A DNA stretch of 42,822 bases from a phage, in the NCBI GenBank assembly GCA_018167975.1, contig GCA_018167975.1_4333.1. One strand, given 5' to 3'. The position numbers were made by a program, and so were the translations under genes. Below the pieces are notes generated by a model, which was not told the origin of the DNA, did no database searches, and worked only from the letters and a program-made list of their open reading frames with translations. The stretch's first letter is position 1. Each line of letters starts with the position of its first letter. Positions 3,338 to 42,822 of the stretch are shown in pieces.

Positions 3338-3368
3338 CTTTTGTCTCTCCTCTCGTTTGTGTAAATGA

Positions 3369-4859: not shown

Positions 4860-5195
4860 GAGAATAGTTACGTTGCCGTTGTGATTCTTTCGTGTAATAG
4901 GATAGCGAGCGAAACGAAACGAACGTGGTGCCGAAGGCACCAAGAGTGAGTGAGTGAGCTTGCGAATCAATAACTTATATCATGTGGTAAAATTTAAATA
5001 GACGGGGGCTTTCTTGCGACTTGCTGTTACTTTGAGGAAACTTAGATACTAACGTTGTCGAAGTGACTCTCAGCGCCCGTCCTTCATTGGCCGGGCTTTG
5101 GTCACCAGAGACTTAATAATAATGTTTCTAAGTAATTCTAAACTAAAGTCCTTCGATACGTTGATTTTACAGCTACATTTTATTTTGTCAACAGG

Positions 5196-5224
5196 TTGTG
5201 TTTAGCTATCGTGGGTGTTATAGT
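5196..5224 (+). promoter_or_regulatory. Candidate early rightward promoter: -35 TTGTGT, 17-bp spacer, -10 TATAGT
   Basis: TATAGT at 5219-5224 (the -10 hexamer shared by the plus-strand promoters at 8656, 10943 and 15053); weak -35; 30 nt upstream of the HTH gene start. Confidence 0.35.
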
Positions 5225-5253
5225 TGTTTCACTTGATAAAGAGGGCGCGTAAA

Positions 5254-5433
5254 ATGACACAGAAAGAAGTAGCAGACTTAATAGGGGTATCTCCTATGAC
5301 GCTTAATCGCTGGTTACGGTCTGGTAAGTTCCCGGAGTGTTGCCGGGTTATTAATGGCTACCGGCAGCCCGGTACTTTTGACCGCGCTACTGTGGAGGAG
5401 TGGATTAAGGAGAACGTGAAAGATGTTAACTAA
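5254..5433 (+). CDS. Small helix-turn-helix DNA-binding protein (AlpA/Xis/MerR-like HTH)
   Basis: MTQKEVADLIGVSPMTLNRWLRSGKFP is a classic HTH segment; ATG at 5254 with GAGGG RBS; first gene of the rightward early operon. Confidence 0.55.
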   Translation: MTQKEVADLIGVSPMTLNRWLRSGKFPECCRVINGYRQPGTFDRATVEEWIKENVKDVN

Positions 5434-8338: not shown

Positions 8339-8362
8339 AAAGAAAGGGGCGTTAAGCCCCTT
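8333..8362. terminator. Bidirectional hairpin terminator between convergent genes
   Basis: Stem AGGGGC (8345-8350) / GCCCCT (8356-8361), loop GTTAA; A-rich tract upstream on the plus strand gives a U-tract for the minus-strand (Cro-like gene) transcript. Confidence 0.5.
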
Positions 8363-8567
8363 CACCGAACGCCAGCCACTTGGCGTCTACTTCCAGCACT
8401 TCCGCCAGTTTAAACAGCGTCGCCGGGCGGACGTCCTGAGTTACTCCAAGTGCCAGCTGGTTAATTACGCCCTGGGAAACGCCAGCCAGGACAGCAAGAC
8501 GGCGCTGGGAGATGCCGAGTTCTTTACGACGTTGTTCTACACGGATGCCTAGTTCAGATGGTTGCAT
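8352..8567 (-). CDS. Cro/CI-type (XRE-family) HTH transcriptional regulator
   Basis: 71 aa; ELGISQRRLAVLAGVSQGVINQL is a canonical XRE HTH; AAGGAG RBS; divergently transcribed from the rightward early promoter at 8632-8661. Confidence 0.7.
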   Translation of the reverse strand: MQPSELGIRVEQRRKELGISQRRLAVLAGVSQGVINQLALGVTQDVRPATLFKLAEVLEVDAKWLAFGEGA

Positions 8568-8598
8568 GTCAATTACTCCTTAGTCAGTTGATATGTGA

Positions 8599-11687: not shown

Positions 11688-12161
11688 ATGGAACATATAA
11701 AAGATTTTCTTAGCTATAACCGAGAAACCGGAATATTCACATGGATACAACCTACGTACAGACGAGGGAAACCTGGAGACATTGCGGGATGCATTAATAG
11801 TAGCGGATACTGGCGCATACCTTATATGGGTAGATATTACATGGCCCACAGGCTTGCTTGGTTTTTCGAGTACGGTGAATGGCCTGAGGGGCCGCTTGAC
11901 CACATAAACCGTGACAGGTTAGACAATAGGATTTCTAACCTAAGGAAAGCAACCACCGCAGATAATGTGCGAAACGCTAAAAATAAGGGAGCTAGAACGG
12001 GAGTTAAGGGAGTAGTTAAAACCGGCAACCGATTTTATGGGCGGGTACATTTTAACTACAAAAGTTATAATGCGGGTAGCTACGGAACTCTTGAAGAAGC
12101 AGAAAGCGCTGTAAAGAAATTAAGAGAAAAACTGCATAAGGAATTTTATTGCCATGACTAG
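11688..12161 (+). CDS. HNH homing endonuclease (HNH_3 catalytic motif plus AP2-like DNA-binding domain)
   Basis: ORF 11664..12161; ATG at 11688 with GGAG RBS; AHRLAWFFEYGEWPEGPLDHINRDRLDNRISNLR (HNH) and GVKGVVKTGNRFYGRV...GTLEEAESA (AP2-like). Confidence 0.75.
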   Translation: MEHIKDFLSYNRETGIFTWIQPTYRRGKPGDIAGCINSSGYWRIPYMGRYYMAHRLAWFFEYGEWPEGPLDHINRDRLDNRISNLRKATTADNVRNAKNKGARTGVKGVVKTGNRFYGRVHFNYKSYNAGSYGTLEEAESAVKKLREKLHKEFYCHD

Positions 12162-14424
12162 TTTATTATACCTGGATACCGAGACATTCTCCGAAGCAGA
12201 CTTAAAGAAAGTCGGGTCGTATGCGTATGCGGAGCACCCAACGACAGAGGTTATAATTTGTACATATGCCGTTGATGACGGCCCTGTAGAAGTATGGGAT
12301 TGCACTTCCGAACCAGTAATGCCAATAAGCCTCCGCGTAGCGCTCCGTAATGTTATGCGTGGACGTATGAAAATCGTGGGCCATAACTTTTTAATGTTCG
12401 ATCGTCTAATCCTGAAACACTGCTGGGACTTTGATATCCCGGTAAGCAACACCATTGATACGATGATTTGGGCGTTTCGTCACGCGCTGCCAGGGTCACT
12501 TGATGCGCTGTGTGAAGTGCTTGGCGTGTCCGCTGATAATGCGAAAGACAAACGCGGCAAGGCGCTGATTCAGCGTTTCTCTAAACCGACACCGAAGAAC
12601 TATAAAATCCGCCGCTACACCGCCGAAACGCACCCGGACGAATGGGCGCTGTTCATCAAGTACGCCGTGAGCGACATCACAGCGATGCGTGAAGTCTTCC
12701 ATAAGCTGCCACGTTGGGGTAACTCCGATTTCGAGGACCGTGTACTTGAACTTGACCAGTTAATCAACGACCGAGGCTTTTTTGTTGATGCAGCTCTTGC
12801 TGAGGCAGCGGTAGCGGCAGTTGAACGCCACAAGCAAGAGCTAAAAAACGAGGCCCGCGCGAAATTCGGGGGGAAACTAACGGGCAAAGACTTCCTGCCA
12901 ATCCTTCGGGAGCTGGCACCGGCCTACAATATCTATAATGCGCAGAAAGCGACGCTCGAAGGTTTGTTAGAGGACGACGACTTGCCCGACGATGCGCGTA
13001 CAATCATTGAGATGCGCCTCGGCGCGGCCTCCACGGCGTCAACAAAATATAAGCCGCTCCTGTTAGGACGGTCCAAAGACGGACGACGCCGTGGTTGCAT
13101 CCAGTATGGCGGCGCGAAGCGCACTTTACGGTTTGCGGGTAAAGGGTTCCAGCCGCAGAACCTGTCGCGCGGGTACTACCACGACGACCCGACTAACGAG
13201 GAAAAGAAACTTGTACGCCAGCCGTGGGAGTCCGACGAAGACTGGAACCGCAGGCTTAACCCGCTATCATTTGGCATCAATTTGCTTTTAAAGGGTCGGG
13301 CGCATCGCCGTTTCGATGTATCTAAGCTGACAGCTTCAACTGTTCGCAGCTGCATCATCCCTGAAAAGGGTAATAAGTTGCTCGTTGCCGACTACTCAAA
13401 CGTGGAAGGGCGCGGGTTGGCCTGGGCCGCCGGGGAGACATCCGCGCTTGAGACCTTCCGAGCAGGGATTGATATCTATTGCGCCACCGCGGGCAAGATG
13501 TTTGGCATGGACCCCGTAGAGCTAAAAGCCACCCGTAAGGACCTACGTCAGGTCGGGAAATGTTGCGAACTCGGCCTCGGCTACGAGGGGGGCGTAGGGG
13601 CCTTTATGACTATGGCTAAAACTTACGGGCTGGACCTCTTTAAAATGACGGAGACAATGCGGGGCACGTTCCCTGATCACATTTGGGCGGCTACTGCCAG
13701 GGGCTATGAATGGGCGCGGATTCAGGAGGCTAAGAGACCCCCGAAACCCGGTAAAAAGGATGAACGGGCCTCTTATGTGCTGCCTAAAGAAGTCTGGCGC
13801 ACCTGCGATGCTATCAAGCGCATGTGGCGTGAGGCCCATCCAGAAACAGTGAAATTCTGGAACGACCTTAAGGATTCGGTAATTGCCGCAATCAGAAATC
13901 CGGGACGAGAGTTTTGGGCGGGGGCCAGAGTCCGCCTTAACGGCGACAGAGCTATTCGCATCTGGCGTACTAAAGAGAAAGATAGTCAGGGTAGATTTGT
14001 GCCGGGTTGGTGGTTGTGTGTAGAACTGCCGTCAGGGCGCGTCATGTCGTACCCCGGCATAGGTCTGAGCGTTACTAAAGAAACTGACGAGGATGGGCGC
14101 GTAACAACTAACGTTCGCATTAAGTACCAGGGCGAAAACCAGACCACCCGCCAGTGGACAACTTTGTACACACACGGCGGAAAATTGTGTGAAAACATCA
14201 TCCAGGCGTTGTGCCGTGATTTACTGGTTAACGGACTCCTGACGGTCGAGGCGGCGGGCTACCCAATTGTACTCCACGTACATGACGAATGTGTTGCCGA
14301 AACGCCAGACACGCCAGAGTACACGGTTAAAGAGATGGGTGACCTGCTATGCTCATTACCCGAATGGGCCGAAGGGTTCCCGTTAACATGGGCTGGGGAA
14401 GAGGTGTACCGTTATGCTAAGTAA
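12154..14424 (+). CDS. DNA polymerase, family A (Pol I-like) with 3'-5' exonuclease domain
   Basis: 756 aa; exo motifs YLDTETFS, HNFLMFD, YAVSDITAM; polymerase motifs DYSNVEGRGLAW (A), RKDLRQVGKCCELGLGYEGG (B), VLHVHDECV (C). Confidence 0.85.
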   Translation: MTSLLYLDTETFSEADLKKVGSYAYAEHPTTEVIICTYAVDDGPVEVWDCTSEPVMPISLRVALRNVMRGRMKIVGHNFLMFDRLILKHCWDFDIPVSNTIDTMIWAFRHALPGSLDALCEVLGVSADNAKDKRGKALIQRFSKPTPKNYKIRRYTAETHPDEWALFIKYAVSDITAMREVFHKLPRWGNSDFEDRVLELDQLINDRGFFVDAALAEAAVAAVERHKQELKNEARAKFGGKLTGKDFLPILRELAPAYNIYNAQKATLEGLLEDDDLPDDARTIIEMRLGAASTASTKYKPLLLGRSKDGRRRGCIQYGGAKRTLRFAGKGFQPQNLSRGYYHDDPTNEEKKLVRQPWESDEDWNRRLNPLSFGINLLLKGRAHRRFDVSKLTASTVRSCIIPEKGNKLLVADYSNVEGRGLAWAAGETSALETFRAGIDIYCATAGKMFGMDPVELKATRKDLRQVGKCCELGLGYEGGVGAFMTMAKTYGLDLFKMTETMRGTFPDHIWAATARGYEWARIQEAKRPPKPGKKDERASYVLPKEVWRTCDAIKRMWREAHPETVKFWNDLKDSVIAAIRNPGREFWAGARVRLNGDRAIRIWRTKEKDSQGRFVPGWWLCVELPSGRVMSYPGIGLSVTKETDEDGRVTTNVRIKYQGENQTTRQWTTLYTHGGKLCENIIQALCRDLLVNGLLTVEAAGYPIVLHVHDECVAETPDTPEYTVKEMGDLLCSLPEWAEGFPLTWAGEEVYRYAK

Positions 14425-34261: not shown

Positions 34262-34343
34262 AGTCAGTATGTCCCCTGGACGTTGGAACCCGGGCCACCC
34301 GGATTTACATGTCAAGAATAAATTATTCCAACATGCAAGGCAA

Positions 34344-34607
34344 CTATTCCAGAATATTCCTCACGTAATCCTGCAACATGAACACCTTCAGCCTCAGTTG
34401 CCGTACGCATTCTGCATTCTGAACGTCGGTAGCCAAATCCTCGTCCGCGTCGCTACTTGGTAGTGCCAGTTTGCACGGCGGCTGCATCATCGTCGTATCC
34501 GGGGATGGAATTGGCGTTTGCGACGGCGCGGGACTTGAGCAGGACGCGAGCATCATCGAAAGTGCACACGCTGCGGCCAGGCGTTTTAACGTACTTAACG
34601 ACTTCAC
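34344..34607 (-). CDS. Outer-membrane spanin (Rz1-like lipoprotein), overlapping the i-spanin gene in another frame
   Basis: GTG start at 34605-34607 with GAGGTGA RBS; signal peptide ending in lipobox LASC; Pro-rich mature region SSPAPSQTPIPSPD. Confidence 0.6.
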   Translation of the reverse strand: MKSLSTLKRLAAACALSMMLASCSSPAPSQTPIPSPDTTMMQPPCKLALPSSDADEDLATDVQNAECVRQLRLKVFMLQDYVRNILE

Positions 34608-34839
34608 GGGTGATCACCTCTGATTTCGTCTTGCCTTCGTTGTCAGCGGCTGCGGCCTTCGATTCATCCTGCTGCTGCCGTTGTGTTTTCTTCGCTAACT
34701 CAGCCTGTGCTTTCTGCTGTTGCTGCGAAACGAGATTCGCCTGGCCTTCGTGCCACCCGCTGTGGTATTGAAAGTAGCCGTGTGCGTATAACAGGATGAT
34801 GAAACATGCTCCTGCTACGACAGTTGCTTTAAGATTCAT
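34453..34839 (-). CDS. Inner-membrane spanin (Rz-like)
   Basis: N-terminal TM (VVAGACFIILLYA) followed by Gln/Ala/Lys-rich coiled coil; AAGGAG RBS; contains the out-of-frame Rz1-like ORF. Confidence 0.65.
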   Translation of the reverse strand: MNLKATVVAGACFIILLYAHGYFQYHSGWHEGQANLVSQQQQKAQAELAKKTQRQQQDESKAAAADNEGKTKSEVITREVVKYVKTPGRSVCTFDDARVLLKSRAVANANSIPGYDDDAAAVQTGTTK

Positions 34840-35090
34840 GTTTCTCCTTTCTCGATAAGTAAAGCCCCGCCATAAAGCGGGGCGCTAGTCCTTATCATTT
34901 AAACATAGAAACGGCGTAATCTCAGTAAACCAGTTACTTTTTACACAAGCAATAGAGTATGGCCCTTCCGAACGCGTCAGCGTAACTACACTCAGGACTT
35001 ACGTCCCGCTTCGTTACCTGCCCGCGCCGCGGTCGCTTGTTCATACTTCACAAGCTCAGGTGAAGCTTAGCATATTTTTAGTGAAAAGTC

Positions 35091-35106
35091 AACTATTCGA
35101 ATAGTT
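35091..35106. promoter_or_regulatory. Perfect 16-bp palindrome AACTATTCGAATAGTT (candidate regulator binding site)
   Basis: Self-complementary; shares the GAATAG/CTATTC half-site with the promoter-embedded palindromes; lies in the 380-bp intergenic region upstream of Rz and the 35222 moron. Confidence 0.4.
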
Positions 35107-35158
35107 TATTCCGACATTTACAATTGAGGGTAATAACTGGAATACGTAAACAAATAGT

Positions 35159-35187
35159 TTGCACACCCCAACATAATAGGGTACTAT
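35159..35187 (+). promoter_or_regulatory. Sigma70-like promoter: -35 TTGCAC, 17-bp spacer, -10 TACTAT, palindrome AATAGGGTACTATT
   Basis: TTGCAC 35159-35164, TACTAT 35182-35187; near-identical to the promoters at 26106 and 4831 (rc). Confidence 0.6.
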
Positions 35188-35221
35188 TCATTACATCGAA
35201 ACGAGAGATAAGGAATTTAGA

Positions 35222-35441
35222 GATGAACAAAGCTACCGCAAACGTGGTCCGCGCTATCGAAGAACTTTACGGCATTGATATCGCGAGCCGTGTGCTTATC
35301 GGAAACAAACGTAACTTTTTTACCTTTTGCACGGATGGTATGGAAGAGAACGATTTTAACAACGTTCAACGTTTTGCTAACGAACACGGTCTACGCAACG
35401 AGCCAGCAGGTTACAAGAAATTCGCTATATTCTTTAAATAA
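35222..35441 (+). CDS. Hypothetical protein encoded by a rightward moron
   Basis: ORF 35124..35441; ATG at 35222 with AAGGAA RBS; own promoter and terminator; opposite in orientation to the flanking head genes. Confidence 0.5.
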
Positions 35442-35470
35442 AACTAAGGCCCCGAAAGGGGCCTTTTATC
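35442..35470. terminator. Bidirectional Rho-independent terminator between convergent genes
   Basis: AAGGCCCC-GAAA-GGGGCCTT (35446-35465), U-tracts on both strands. Confidence 0.65.
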
Positions 35471-35930
35471 ATTCCGGCTTAGTGACCTTCGCCGCTTTAC
35501 TCACAGCCTCTACACCATCGGCATCAGTAACTTTAACGAAGTATTCGCCCGCAGCGTTAACCGTCAGAGACAAAGCCTCTTCCGGGGCGTTTACCACTTC
35601 CTTACCGTCTTTGTACCAGGTCAGCGCATACGGTGCTTTGCCTGCCTTAACTTCGACAGTGATAGTTGCGCTGCCGTCTGCCAGTTCAGCGTCTTTCGGT
35701 TGCACAGAGAAATACACATCGCCTGCGTCCACCAGATACGGAATCTCGTAAAGCATACCCGCTGCGGGTAGTGCAATACCGGTTTTATCTGCAAAAGGCA
35801 TGTCGTCTACTGGTGTACCTAGTACACTTTCGTCCCCAATAGACACCACGTTCTCACCGGAGCCAGACACACGAGCAAACTGGACTACACGACGTGAAGG
35901 CACATCAGTTACTTTGAAAAAGCCCATCAT
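35469..35930 (-). CDS. Ig-like domain structural protein
   Basis: ATITVEVKAGKAPYALTWYKDGKEV...AGEYFVKVTDADG shows Ig-like pattern; ATGA-type coupling with the head morphogenesis gene. Confidence 0.5.
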   Translation of the reverse strand: MMGFFKVTDVPSRRVVQFARVSGSGENVVSIGDESVLGTPVDDMPFADKTGIALPAAGMLYEIPYLVDAGDVYFSVQPKDAELADGSATITVEVKAGKAPYALTWYKDGKEVVNAPEEALSLTVNAAGEYFVKVTDADGVEAVSKAAKVTKPE

Positions 35931-37348: not shown

Positions 37349-38815
37349 CTCCTGTTGCTGTGCTGACTGCGGAATCTCCCCCGCCACCTGAGTAACAGCG
37401 CCTAACGGCACAGGTGCGTCCTCAATCGCCGTTGTAATCTCCTCGTCGGTCCAGTCAGTTACCCCGGCCTTACGCAGCGCGGAGTAGTAGGCGGTTGCTG
37501 GCAGTAAACCAGCGTTAATGTCTGCCATCCACTGTGCGCGGTCTTGCGCCGTCATCGGTTGCAGGAAGAACTCCATGTTCAGCTTGAACTCAATTTCCGT
37601 GCCTTCGCGCAAGCCCAGCATAGCAGCCACCCAACGCAACGCCTCTGTGTATGCCATGCTTACGTTACGCGCAATGGTTGCCATTACGGATGTATCAGCG
37701 CCACGTTGCAGGCGGGCTGATTCAGCGGTAATCTGCTGCGTCGGCGTGATAAGCTGCGCACCAATCTGGATGGCCTGATTCTCTTTATCCAGCATGTTCT
37801 GTTTGGCGAGGTTGTTCTCTCCGGCCTGAACCAGAAACGCATTGCCGCCGTAACCGATGTTATGGCCTGAGCGCGACCCCATGCGCACGCCGTGAGGGTT
37901 GGCTTCCGCCCACTGTTCCATGCTCATGTTCTCGCCCGGGGCAATAAACAGAGTCGGCTGGCCTACGACAAAGCTGGATTCCTCATTATCTGCGCTGTTG
38001 CGGAAATGCCCAATATTAAGCTCCGCCAACGGCAGCAAAGGGGCGTCGTCGATAGTAGCGTCGTTGTTGCTTGCGCCAATGAACGTGAACGGGATTTTGC
38101 CGCGTAACTGTTCGCCGAGTTCCGGGAAGATTTCGATTACTTCGTCCTGAGCGCCACCCTCGGCATCGAAGCGGTAAATGCGCTGGCGGTAGCGACCATC
38201 AATCAGGTCGAGGACACGATATTGCTCACCGAACTTGGTTTCGAACTCTGCACCAGGTTCTGAGTATTCCCATACTTCGCGCAACACGACCATAGTCACA
38301 CGGTTAACTGAACCGACGCGTGTCAGCCGCCAGTTGATGATGTTCTCCGCGGTATAGAATGCGATGACCGGGTTTAATAATCCCGCGTTCTGCTCCGCCG
38401 CCGTTGCTGCGGCTGTCTCCGGGGCGTCCACCAGCAACCCACCGCGGCCTACCGAGTCAATCTCCATTAGCGTATCCTGCGCGTGCTGCCACAGCCCGAC
38501 GCCCGAACCGTCGGCATTACGTAACAGGTACCCCAGTTCAGGCGGAATAATCTGTTCAGGGTCTTTGCGCATCACCGACCCAACCATCCCCGCCAGGGTA
38601 CGTTTGGTGAAGTTGTAGCAGATAGCGCCGTTCTCGTATTCTTCCTGGCGCTGCGCCGCGTAGGTAGGGTCAGGCTCGTTCTTCCCGACATTGCGCAGAT
38701 AACGAATAAGGTCGCCTTCCAGCGCATGACGTACCTTCTGCCATTTATCGAAGTGATGCAGCCATTCCCGGTGTTTTGTCTTAACACCCTGATTCTGACC
38801 GTTCATAGTTAACAT
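37346..38815 (-). CDS. Portal protein
   Basis: 489 aa directly downstream of the large terminase gene; AGAGGA RBS; assignment by synteny and size. Confidence 0.75.
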   Translation of the reverse strand: MLTMNGQNQGVKTKHREWLHHFDKWQKVRHALEGDLIRYLRNVGKNEPDPTYAAQRQEEYENGAICYNFTKRTLAGMVGSVMRKDPEQIIPPELGYLLRNADGSGVGLWQHAQDTLMEIDSVGRGGLLVDAPETAAATAAEQNAGLLNPVIAFYTAENIINWRLTRVGSVNRVTMVVLREVWEYSEPGAEFETKFGEQYRVLDLIDGRYRQRIYRFDAEGGAQDEVIEIFPELGEQLRGKIPFTFIGASNNDATIDDAPLLPLAELNIGHFRNSADNEESSFVVGQPTLFIAPGENMSMEQWAEANPHGVRMGSRSGHNIGYGGNAFLVQAGENNLAKQNMLDKENQAIQIGAQLITPTQQITAESARLQRGADTSVMATIARNVSMAYTEALRWVAAMLGLREGTEIEFKLNMEFFLQPMTAQDRAQWMADINAGLLPATAYYSALRKAGVTDWTDEEITTAIEDAPVPLGAVTQVAGEIPQSAQQQE

Positions 38816-41276: not shown

Positions 41277-41554
41277 TTAGGCTCTCCCTTAATAACCGTT
41301 ATATCTTTCTTGTTAAGGTCTACAAATACAGTGTGTGCACCGTGAGTGAGAACCAGACACTGTGGCACAAGCCCTTCTGTTGACCATACAAACTCCTGTG
41401 GACGGCAGGCGCGAACCCTACGTGTTTCGAACATACCGTTAACTGAAATTACGCCGTAATTCTGTGTTTCGCTGGCGTTCGCGTATTTACGATAGACGGC
41501 CTCTTCTATAGCTGATTCAATGTCCGTAAACTTTGATGTAACGGTACGCGCCAT
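41273..41554 (-). CDS. Hypothetical protein
   Basis: 93-aa ORF, coupled to neighbours. Confidence 0.45.
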   Translation of the reverse strand: MARTVTSKFTDIESAIEEAVYRKYANASETQNYGVISVNGMFETRRVRACRPQEFVWSTEGLVPQCLVLTHGAHTVFVDLNKKDITVIKGEPN

Positions 41555-42772: not shown

Positions 42773-42801
42773 ATATAATAGGGTCGTAGGTAATAGTCAA
42801 C
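42773..42801 (-). promoter_or_regulatory. Candidate leftward promoter: -35 TTGACT, 17-bp spacer, -10 TATATT
   Basis: rc of 42796-42801 = TTGACT; rc of 42773-42778 = TATATT; region contains AATAGGG/TAATAG motif relatives. Confidence 0.35.
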
Positions 42802-42822
42802 TAGTCATTACAGAAAACATAT

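Follow-up and report, generated by a model that had tools for sequence, protein, structure and literature searches.

A perfect palindrome upstream of the spanin genes of a Kagunavirus phage and its place beside a predicted promoter for a structured leader RNA

The phage contig GCA_018167975.1_4333.1 (assembly GCA_018167975.1), whose full 42,822 nucleotides we call the window, carries a perfect 16-bp palindrome in the non-coding DNA upstream of the spanin gene Rz. A sequence-only reading of this DNA proposed that the palindrome may be a high-affinity operator, with no spacer between its half-sites, for the regulator of the palindromes embedded in the phage's promoters, and that it may control spanin or moron expression. 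This raises the question of whether the palindrome is itself a binding site or a by-product of other elements at this locus. The window phage is a Kagunavirus of the subfamily Guernseyvirinae, and the region matches hundreds of genomes of Kagunavirus and Jerseyvirus, two genera of virulent siphophages that infect E. coli and Salmonella. The Guernseyvirinae of these two genera are among the most often isolated E. coli and Salmonella phages for therapy and biocontrol, and their transcription program is essentially unmapped so far. The only RNA-seq paper on Kagunavirus gives gene-level classes only (PMC12645636). Our literature search found no description of the 16-bp palindrome or of the ~200-nt leader RNA discussed below.

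Direct inspection confirmed that AACTATTCGAATAGTT lies at exactly 35091-35106, is exactly self-complementary (AACTATTC/GAATAGTT), and sits, as had been noted, in a non-coding gap upstream of Rz. This gap is 383 nt long and extends from the Rz start codon (34839, minus strand) to a small plus-strand ORF (35223-35441). The spanin genes Rz (34453-34839) and, embedded in it, Rz1 (34344-34607) are both on the minus strand. No other perfect palindrome of at least 16 bp occurs in the window. In 300 dinucleotide-preserving shuffles of the window the mean number of such palindromes was 0.74, and 52% of the shuffles contained at least one, ruling out that the palindrome is statistically significant by itself. 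Since the symmetry is no more than chance gives, any significance must come from position and conservation. A stable hairpin or cruciform was also ruled out: the predicted energy amounts to just -2.5 to -2.8 kcal/mol, and the z-scores are unremarkable.

Conservation was examined in 38 unique Kagunavirus-type and nine Jerseyvirus-type sequences; the deep clades at hand number two, and many contrasts between conserved and variable positions rest on few independent events. A metagenome scan with the 16-base pattern returned soil and marine contigs that were mostly chance matches, and yielded no more than a few 44-kb phage contigs of use. Of the 38 Kagunavirus-type sequences, 33 have a perfect palindrome and the other five each carry one uncompensated substitution in it. 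Within Kagunavirus no block varies less than the palindrome, and this low variability could mean that the full symmetric site is itself under selection. It is absent from all nine Jerseyvirus-type sequences, which have TACTTTTTGAATAAAG or TATTTTTGGAATAAAG at this position, neither of them palindromic, between flanks that are still recognizable. Conservation in relatives, one of the checks proposed along with the operator idea, thus went against it as far as sequence can tell: Jerseyvirus keeps the flanking promoter and the upstream motifs without the palindrome. As judged from these alignments, the palindrome is not conserved as a unit across the subfamily.

The flanking promoter is a predicted sigma-70 promoter with an extended -10 that is directed leftward, toward the spanin genes (35064-35092, minus strand). 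It consists of TTGACT (35092-35087), a 17-nt spacer that includes TG (35072-35071), and TAAGCT (35069-35064), with a predicted start site at ~35057. The palindrome overlaps the predicted -35 hexamer by 2 bp and spans -34 to -49 of the predicted start, with its center at -41.5. The 38 Kagunavirus-type sequences all agree in the -35, the TG and the -10; no block of the region varies more than the spacer, which is nonetheless constant in length, and the n of TGn is C, A or G. The Jerseyvirus counterpart reads TAGACT-N17-TGT-TACGCT and its spacer is equal in length to that of Kagunavirus and unrelated in sequence (5/14 identical). Invariant hexamers and TG combined with a variable spacer of fixed length are typical of sigma-70 promoters of the extended -10 type. 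Accordingly, the predicted promoter has a -35-like hexamer, a spacer of 17±1, a TGn, and a -10 with A2 and T6. A simple consensus scanner did not list it because its -10 matches at only 3/6 positions and relies on the TG extension. The plus-strand promoter that the scanner did list, TTCACA-18-CATATT, was ruled out because its -35 region is deleted in Jerseyvirus. The conserved leftward promoter supports the earlier view that the palindrome lies in regulatory DNA. The palindrome is real and part of functional regulatory DNA, and its perfect symmetry is most likely incidental; in itself it is ordinary promoter-proximal cis-regulatory DNA.

Downstream of this promoter lies a GC-rich segment that had been suspected of being structured RNA. 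This suspicion was borne out, with the RNA on the minus strand. RNAalifold, pair counts and covariation define an unannotated structured leader or small RNA of ~200 nt (34852-35057, minus strand) whose fold, from ~35057 to 34852, has six helices. In 33 distinct sequences, 98.8% of the cells of this fold were standard pairs compared with 29-50% in controls in which the partners were slid by 1-3 columns. Both partners had changed in nine pairs (0-3 in the slid controls), and the covariation score was 0.172, where the slid controls reached 0.036 at most. One internal hairpin occurs with at least four different sequences. In the closing helix, the 5' end pairs with the tail just past a terminator-like hairpin, a few bases before the ribosome-binding site of Rz. 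This GC hairpin (34864-34883, minus strand) is followed by UUUACUUAU and then by the Rz ribosome-binding site, and its stem shows compensatory exchanges of CG to GC, CG to UA, and GC to AU. In Kagunavirus it has a GC stem of 7-8 bp followed by UUUACUUAU, a moderate U-tail, and passes a terminator scan. In Jerseyvirus the stem is kept with compensatory changes but the tail, UUAGCGUA, is poor in U. Based on these moderate and poor U-tails, we interpret the RNA as a partially terminated leader rather than as a small RNA with clean termination.

A search of Rfam 15 at a permissive threshold gave no credible match to the leader RNA (34885-35060); the best overlap, wcaG at 34871-34961, was at chance level (E 6.8; 15.7 bits compared with a gathering score of 42). 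ARAGORN found no tRNA or tmRNA in the window, ruling out either for the GC-rich segment. A 36-aa ORF on the minus strand (35044-34934) was rejected as a gene, with 1-nt indels in several Kagunavirus sequences and its start region deleted in Jerseyvirus; the records of some relatives annotate a spurious ORF of 36-39 aa inside the leader RNA. A sequence-profile search for the RNA in St162 and Klebsiella relatives, whose gaps upstream of Rz are not alignable, found nothing. Within the window, a 32-nt stretch at 41438-41469 has 84% similarity to the 3' part of the RNA, lies in a minus-strand ORF, and was treated as a chance match.

Some Kagunaviruses have a second copy of the promoter and RNA. In Golestan (37602-37778) and in two other genomes, L009 (~11805-11951) and L029 (~12237-12383), an early intergenic region contains TTGACT-N17-TGG-TAAGCT and the first ~130 nt of the transcript. 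The homology ends exactly at the equivalent of 35092, the outer edge of the -35, and excludes the palindrome. A search of the window for a second copy found none. The early region of the window phage has a different leader instead (~5210-4860, minus strand), in which a (CTCA)n microsatellite, present in three copies (~4945-4965; six copies in Golestan, 37800-37826), is followed by a GGTGCC-TTCG-GCACC hairpin. An unannotated RNA of ~200 nt that is found in two genera and duplicated in some genomes is more interesting than the palindrome.

The other elements at the locus are half-sites of a repeated motif. The sequence-only reading had noted that the palindrome has its half-site in common with promoter-embedded palindromes, and this is correct: the window contains ten other, promoter-associated copies of (G/T)AATAG-N4-CTATT(C/A), at 3367, 4829, 8597, 8642, 10929, 15039, 26121, 35174, 37033 and 42791. 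Each lies over part of a promoter beside a gene start, in one of three layouts: on the spacer, on the -10 or on the -35. Allowing up to one mismatch, there are 20 strand-matches at 11 places compared with 0.33 expected per window. The family consensus, tgAATAGTa-ccTATTat-T, was given in the paper on fBC-Eco01 as PHIRE-predicted promoters (PMC9825357). The half-site of that consensus is identical to the one studied here and dyad A, described below, fits it with one mismatch; neither dyad A nor the 16-bp palindrome, whose half-sites have the opposite orientation and no spacer, was described with it (PMC9825357). The consensus was read there as a promoter for a phage RNA polymerase, and the feature tables of two complete relatives annotate no RNA polymerase gene. 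This repeated "phage promoter" motif looks more like an operator family than like phage RNA polymerase promoters and is, we predict, better read as such.

The palindrome does not belong to this family as a unit. Its half-sites, CTATTC and GAATAG, face outward, whereas those of the family face inward, and it has a spacer of 0 (5 bp from center to center), whereas the spacer is N4 (11 bp) in 10/10 reference sites. The true family match at the locus is dyad A (35083-35098), the eleventh of the places counted above, which reads GAAAAG-TCAA-CTATTC or, on the minus strand, GAATAG-TTGA-CTTTTC. Dyad A has inward-facing half-sites separated by N4, with one mismatch, covers the predicted -35, and uses the left half of the palindrome (CTATTC, 35093-35098). 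A position weight matrix (PWM) built from the other family sites placed its match at 35081-35100, not on the palindrome, and dyad A was its best non-training match genome-wide both in the window and in Golestan, a score of which part may be inherited promoter sequence, since the paralogous promoter, which lacks the left half of dyad A, has its right half (CTTTTC) too. A PWM from six sites of the Jerseyvirus Ent3 had its best non-training match, AAGTAG-ACTT-CTATTA, at the equivalent promoter, shifted by 3 nt. The layout of dyad A recurs at the family site 42791-42806, where TTGACT lies inside the family palindrome and is followed by N17-TATATT.

The right half of the palindrome is the first arm of dyad B, GAATA-GTT-TATTC(C) (35099-35112), which is kept in Jerseyvirus as GGAATA-N3-TATTC. 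Farther from the promoter, a direct repeat of two TGGAATA units, 9 bp in period (35129-35144; the first unit is GGTAATA in the window), is also kept in both genera, and hypervariable positions lie between these blocks. The dyad type GAATA-N3-TATTC recurs in the gap between Rz1 and the scaffold gene, where a second GAATA/TATTC cluster adjoins the predicted scaffold promoter, which would serve the capsid genes as well (34315-34360, minus strand): GGAATATTCTGGAATAG, then TTGCCT (34343-34338), N17, and TATTCT (34320-34315). GGAATATTCTGGAATAG overlaps the last codons of Rz1, and across 47 loci of both genera it does not vary, synonymous sites included; in the same loci the hexamers of the scaffold promoter are invariant and the first part of its spacer is variable. 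The window contains just two exact copies of the 12-mer GAATAGTTGNCT, one at 35087-35098 and one at the scaffold promoter. Genome-wide, the two 65-bp intervals that are densest in GAATA/TATTC are the gaps flanking Rz/Rz1, with five and four half-sites in the window phage, five and five in Golestan, and four and four in Ent3. The simulated maximum was 2-3 and reached four once in 300 runs. These features identify predicted regulatory DNA upstream of the capsid-lysis block and suggest that two conserved host-type promoters flank the spanin genes.

Based on this anatomy, the palindrome is probably, by our estimate from sequence, the junction of two dyads in a GAATA/TATTC array that overlaps the -35 of a leftward promoter for the leader RNA. 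Dyads A and B would be the protein-binding dyads, and the palindrome between them would not be a unit itself. Its promoter-proximal half, CTATTC, would act as a half-site of dyad A, sitting on the -35, and its promoter-distal half, GAATAG (35099-35104), as an auxiliary half-site that is also the start of dyad B. The palindrome is perfect in Kagunavirus because these two half-sites lie tail to tail without a gap. We infer that a dimeric DNA-binding regulator sets the access of RNA polymerase to the -35. The promoter would transcribe the ~200-nt leader RNA and, by read-through of the leaky terminator hairpin, probably Rz and Rz1 as well. As to the mode of regulation, repression, by occlusion through dyad A, is our first but tentative choice; the main alternative, class-II-type activation from a site centered at -41.5, is somewhat less plausible. 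The obvious candidate for the regulator is the early Cro-like HTH_3 protein of 71 aa encoded at 8352-8567, which is flanked by the family sites at 8597 and 8642; the homologous HTH gene was classed as early in Kagunavirus RNA-seq (PMC12645636). An HTH_17 protein is encoded at 5254-5433. Of the known consensus sites of the host transcription factors ArgR, TyrR, OxyR, RcsB, CpxR, Fur and TrpR, none fits the spacing.

The proposal from which we started, a zero-spacer and high-affinity operator for the regulator of the promoter-embedded palindromes, draws on half-site hexamers that are identical to those of the family and on a cluster of regulator sites at the equivalent locus of the distant relative VLCpiS11a. 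It is nonetheless improbable. The outward arrangement at 5 bp differs from the inward one at 11 bp seen in all ten family sites, and a small rigid HTH dimer would not be expected to bind both alike. Besides placing the family match on dyad A, the sequence data show the palindrome to be lost in Jerseyvirus, where the family exists as TAATAG-N4-CTATTA, and the uncompensated changes in 5/38 Kagunavirus-type sequences likewise tell against a symmetric unit site. We give about the same low probability to the opposite extreme, that the symmetry is a chance by-product without any role and that the bases are kept only because the whole 300-nt block is conserved. The shuffling result and the weak hairpin agree with this, as does the block itself (34840-35144), which is 92-98% identical among Kagunavirus-type loci and is flanked by less conserved genes. 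On the origin of the symmetry it does not differ from the junction of two dyads; the sole difference is that the bases would have no function, and these lie within the densest half-site cluster region of the genome, adjoin a -35, and match the family half-site far above chance.

In class II activation, CRP and FNR bind at -41.5 and lambda CI at OR2 activates PRM. The palindrome resembles these sites in having its center at -41.5 and in touching the -35 hexamer, and it, or the outward pair TATTC-GAATAG, could be a dimer site from which a regulator activates via sigma region 4. A like site would then serve the scaffold promoter, where TATTC-TG-GAATAG abuts the -35 with its center at ~-42.5 and shares the 12-mer, and the N4 family may be bound by a different protein. 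The invariance of the scaffold block, including synonymous sites of the Rz1 C-terminus, and the low variability of the palindrome in Kagunavirus are consistent with such a site. We consider it unlikely, though less so than the two readings above. The spacing is unequal at the two promoters (0 compared with 2 bp), five single changes among Kagunavirus-type sequences are uncompensated, and the pair is lost in Jerseyvirus, which has AAAAAG or CAAAAA as its promoter-proximal arm. In addition, the start used for this geometry is a predicted one, and a promoter with a good -35 and an extended -10 looks strong unaided and should need no activation.

The idea that the palindrome controls spanin or moron expression found support in its first half only: the adjoining promoter points at the spanin genes, and control of the moron is unlikely since a separate promoter, 68 bp further right (35159-35190), serves it. 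The moron cassette (35159-35465, plus strand) consists of that promoter, TTGCAC-N17-TACTAT, with an embedded family palindrome at 35174-35189, the ORF at 35223-35441, which matches PHROG 7673 "internal head protein" (E 3e-25), and a bidirectional terminator (35446-35465). Other genomes have different cassettes at this spot: two small ORFs in fBC-Eco01, a DNA polymerase III beta-like gene in fEg-Eco19, and a methyltransferase gene in dunkel. The Jerseyvirus gap, from the head-decoration gene to Rz, is ~317 nt long and has no moron. It is conceivable, and in our estimate very improbable, that AACTAT in the palindrome serves as the -10-like hexamer of a rightward promoter, TTAGCA-N18-AACTATTC, which would add to moron transcription or make a short rightward RNA. 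Its layout parallels the TTGCAC-N17-TACTATTC promoters of the phage, and the palindrome accompanies moron cassettes in Kagunavirus-type gaps and is missing from the moron-less Jerseyvirus-type gaps, a co-occurrence that rests on two clades only. However, both hexamers are poor, the spacer is 18 nt, and the conserved 35064-35066 lies outside the rightward -35 and inside the leftward -10. The moron, moreover, already has a strong promoter of its own.

The Klebsiella phage VLCpiS11a, whose spanin is 50% identical, bears on whether the regulator upstream of Rz is the one that acts at the early sites. No GAATA motifs were found in this phage. It has 14 copies of CTCGCAA/TTGCGAG, of which 12 are in the early control region (5036-5286) and in the gap upstream of Rz (35684-35907). 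The gap upstream of Rz contains a perfect 22-bp palindrome, GACTCGCAAAATTTTGCGAGTC, and the early control region contains its 16-bp core. This palindrome has the same genomic position as the one in the window phage, shares its motif with the early control region, and is surrounded by extra single half-sites. It differs in that its sequence is unrelated and that the arrangement there is identical in both regions. A cluster of regulator motifs upstream of Rz, with a full palindrome and extra half-sites, thus seems to be an old architecture whose sequence is specific to each lineage. The presence of the VLCpiS11a palindrome in both regions favors the part of the earlier proposal that invoked the same regulator as at early sites; the zero-spacer unit site did not hold up.

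The operator family invites comparison with OR and OL of lambdoid phages, where dimers of Cro/CI-type HTH proteins bind. As there, short dyads are repeated at several promoters, overlapping the -35, the spacer or the -10, and two of them flank a small HTH_3 gene. Unlike lambdoid phages, the window phage is virulent, without CI or integrase, and its predicted sites are scattered over ~10 promoters and form no tripartite operator. In lambda, the PR'-6S RNA-tR' unit, and in HK022, put, place a promoter-proximal RNA followed by a terminator ahead of the lysis and head genes. The locus studied here has the same order of promoter, structured RNA of ~200 nt, terminator hairpin, and spanin and head genes, and the extra copy that some relatives have where the early operon begins matches in layout. 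It differs in having no sequence or Rfam similarity to these systems and in that no Q-like gene was identified; by analogy, put-like or Q/qut-type antitermination fits in layout only.

The half-site array, the promoter and the ~200-nt RNA might together constitute a previously undescribed control module of the Guernseyvirinae, in which a regulator gates the promoter and the RNA, as a leader in cis or as a small RNA in trans, gates transcription and translation of the spanin, scaffold and capsid genes. We regard this as speculative and rather unlikely. The leader of such a module could work, for example, by put-like read-through of the terminator or by pairing of its 5' end with the tail beside the Rz ribosome-binding site, and the paralogous copy could act likewise at the early operon of some relatives.

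Two further observations concern the relatives. In fEg-Eco19 (651-1157), an HNH homing endonuclease gene is inserted inside the spanin region. In some Jerseyvirus records (L036, 1850-1928; L168, 869-946), an annotated tRNA-Ser coincides in part with the bidirectional terminator and with the end of the head-decoration gene. Of three Jerseyvirus loci, only one has this tRNA-Ser called by ARAGORN, and the annotation is probably a false positive.
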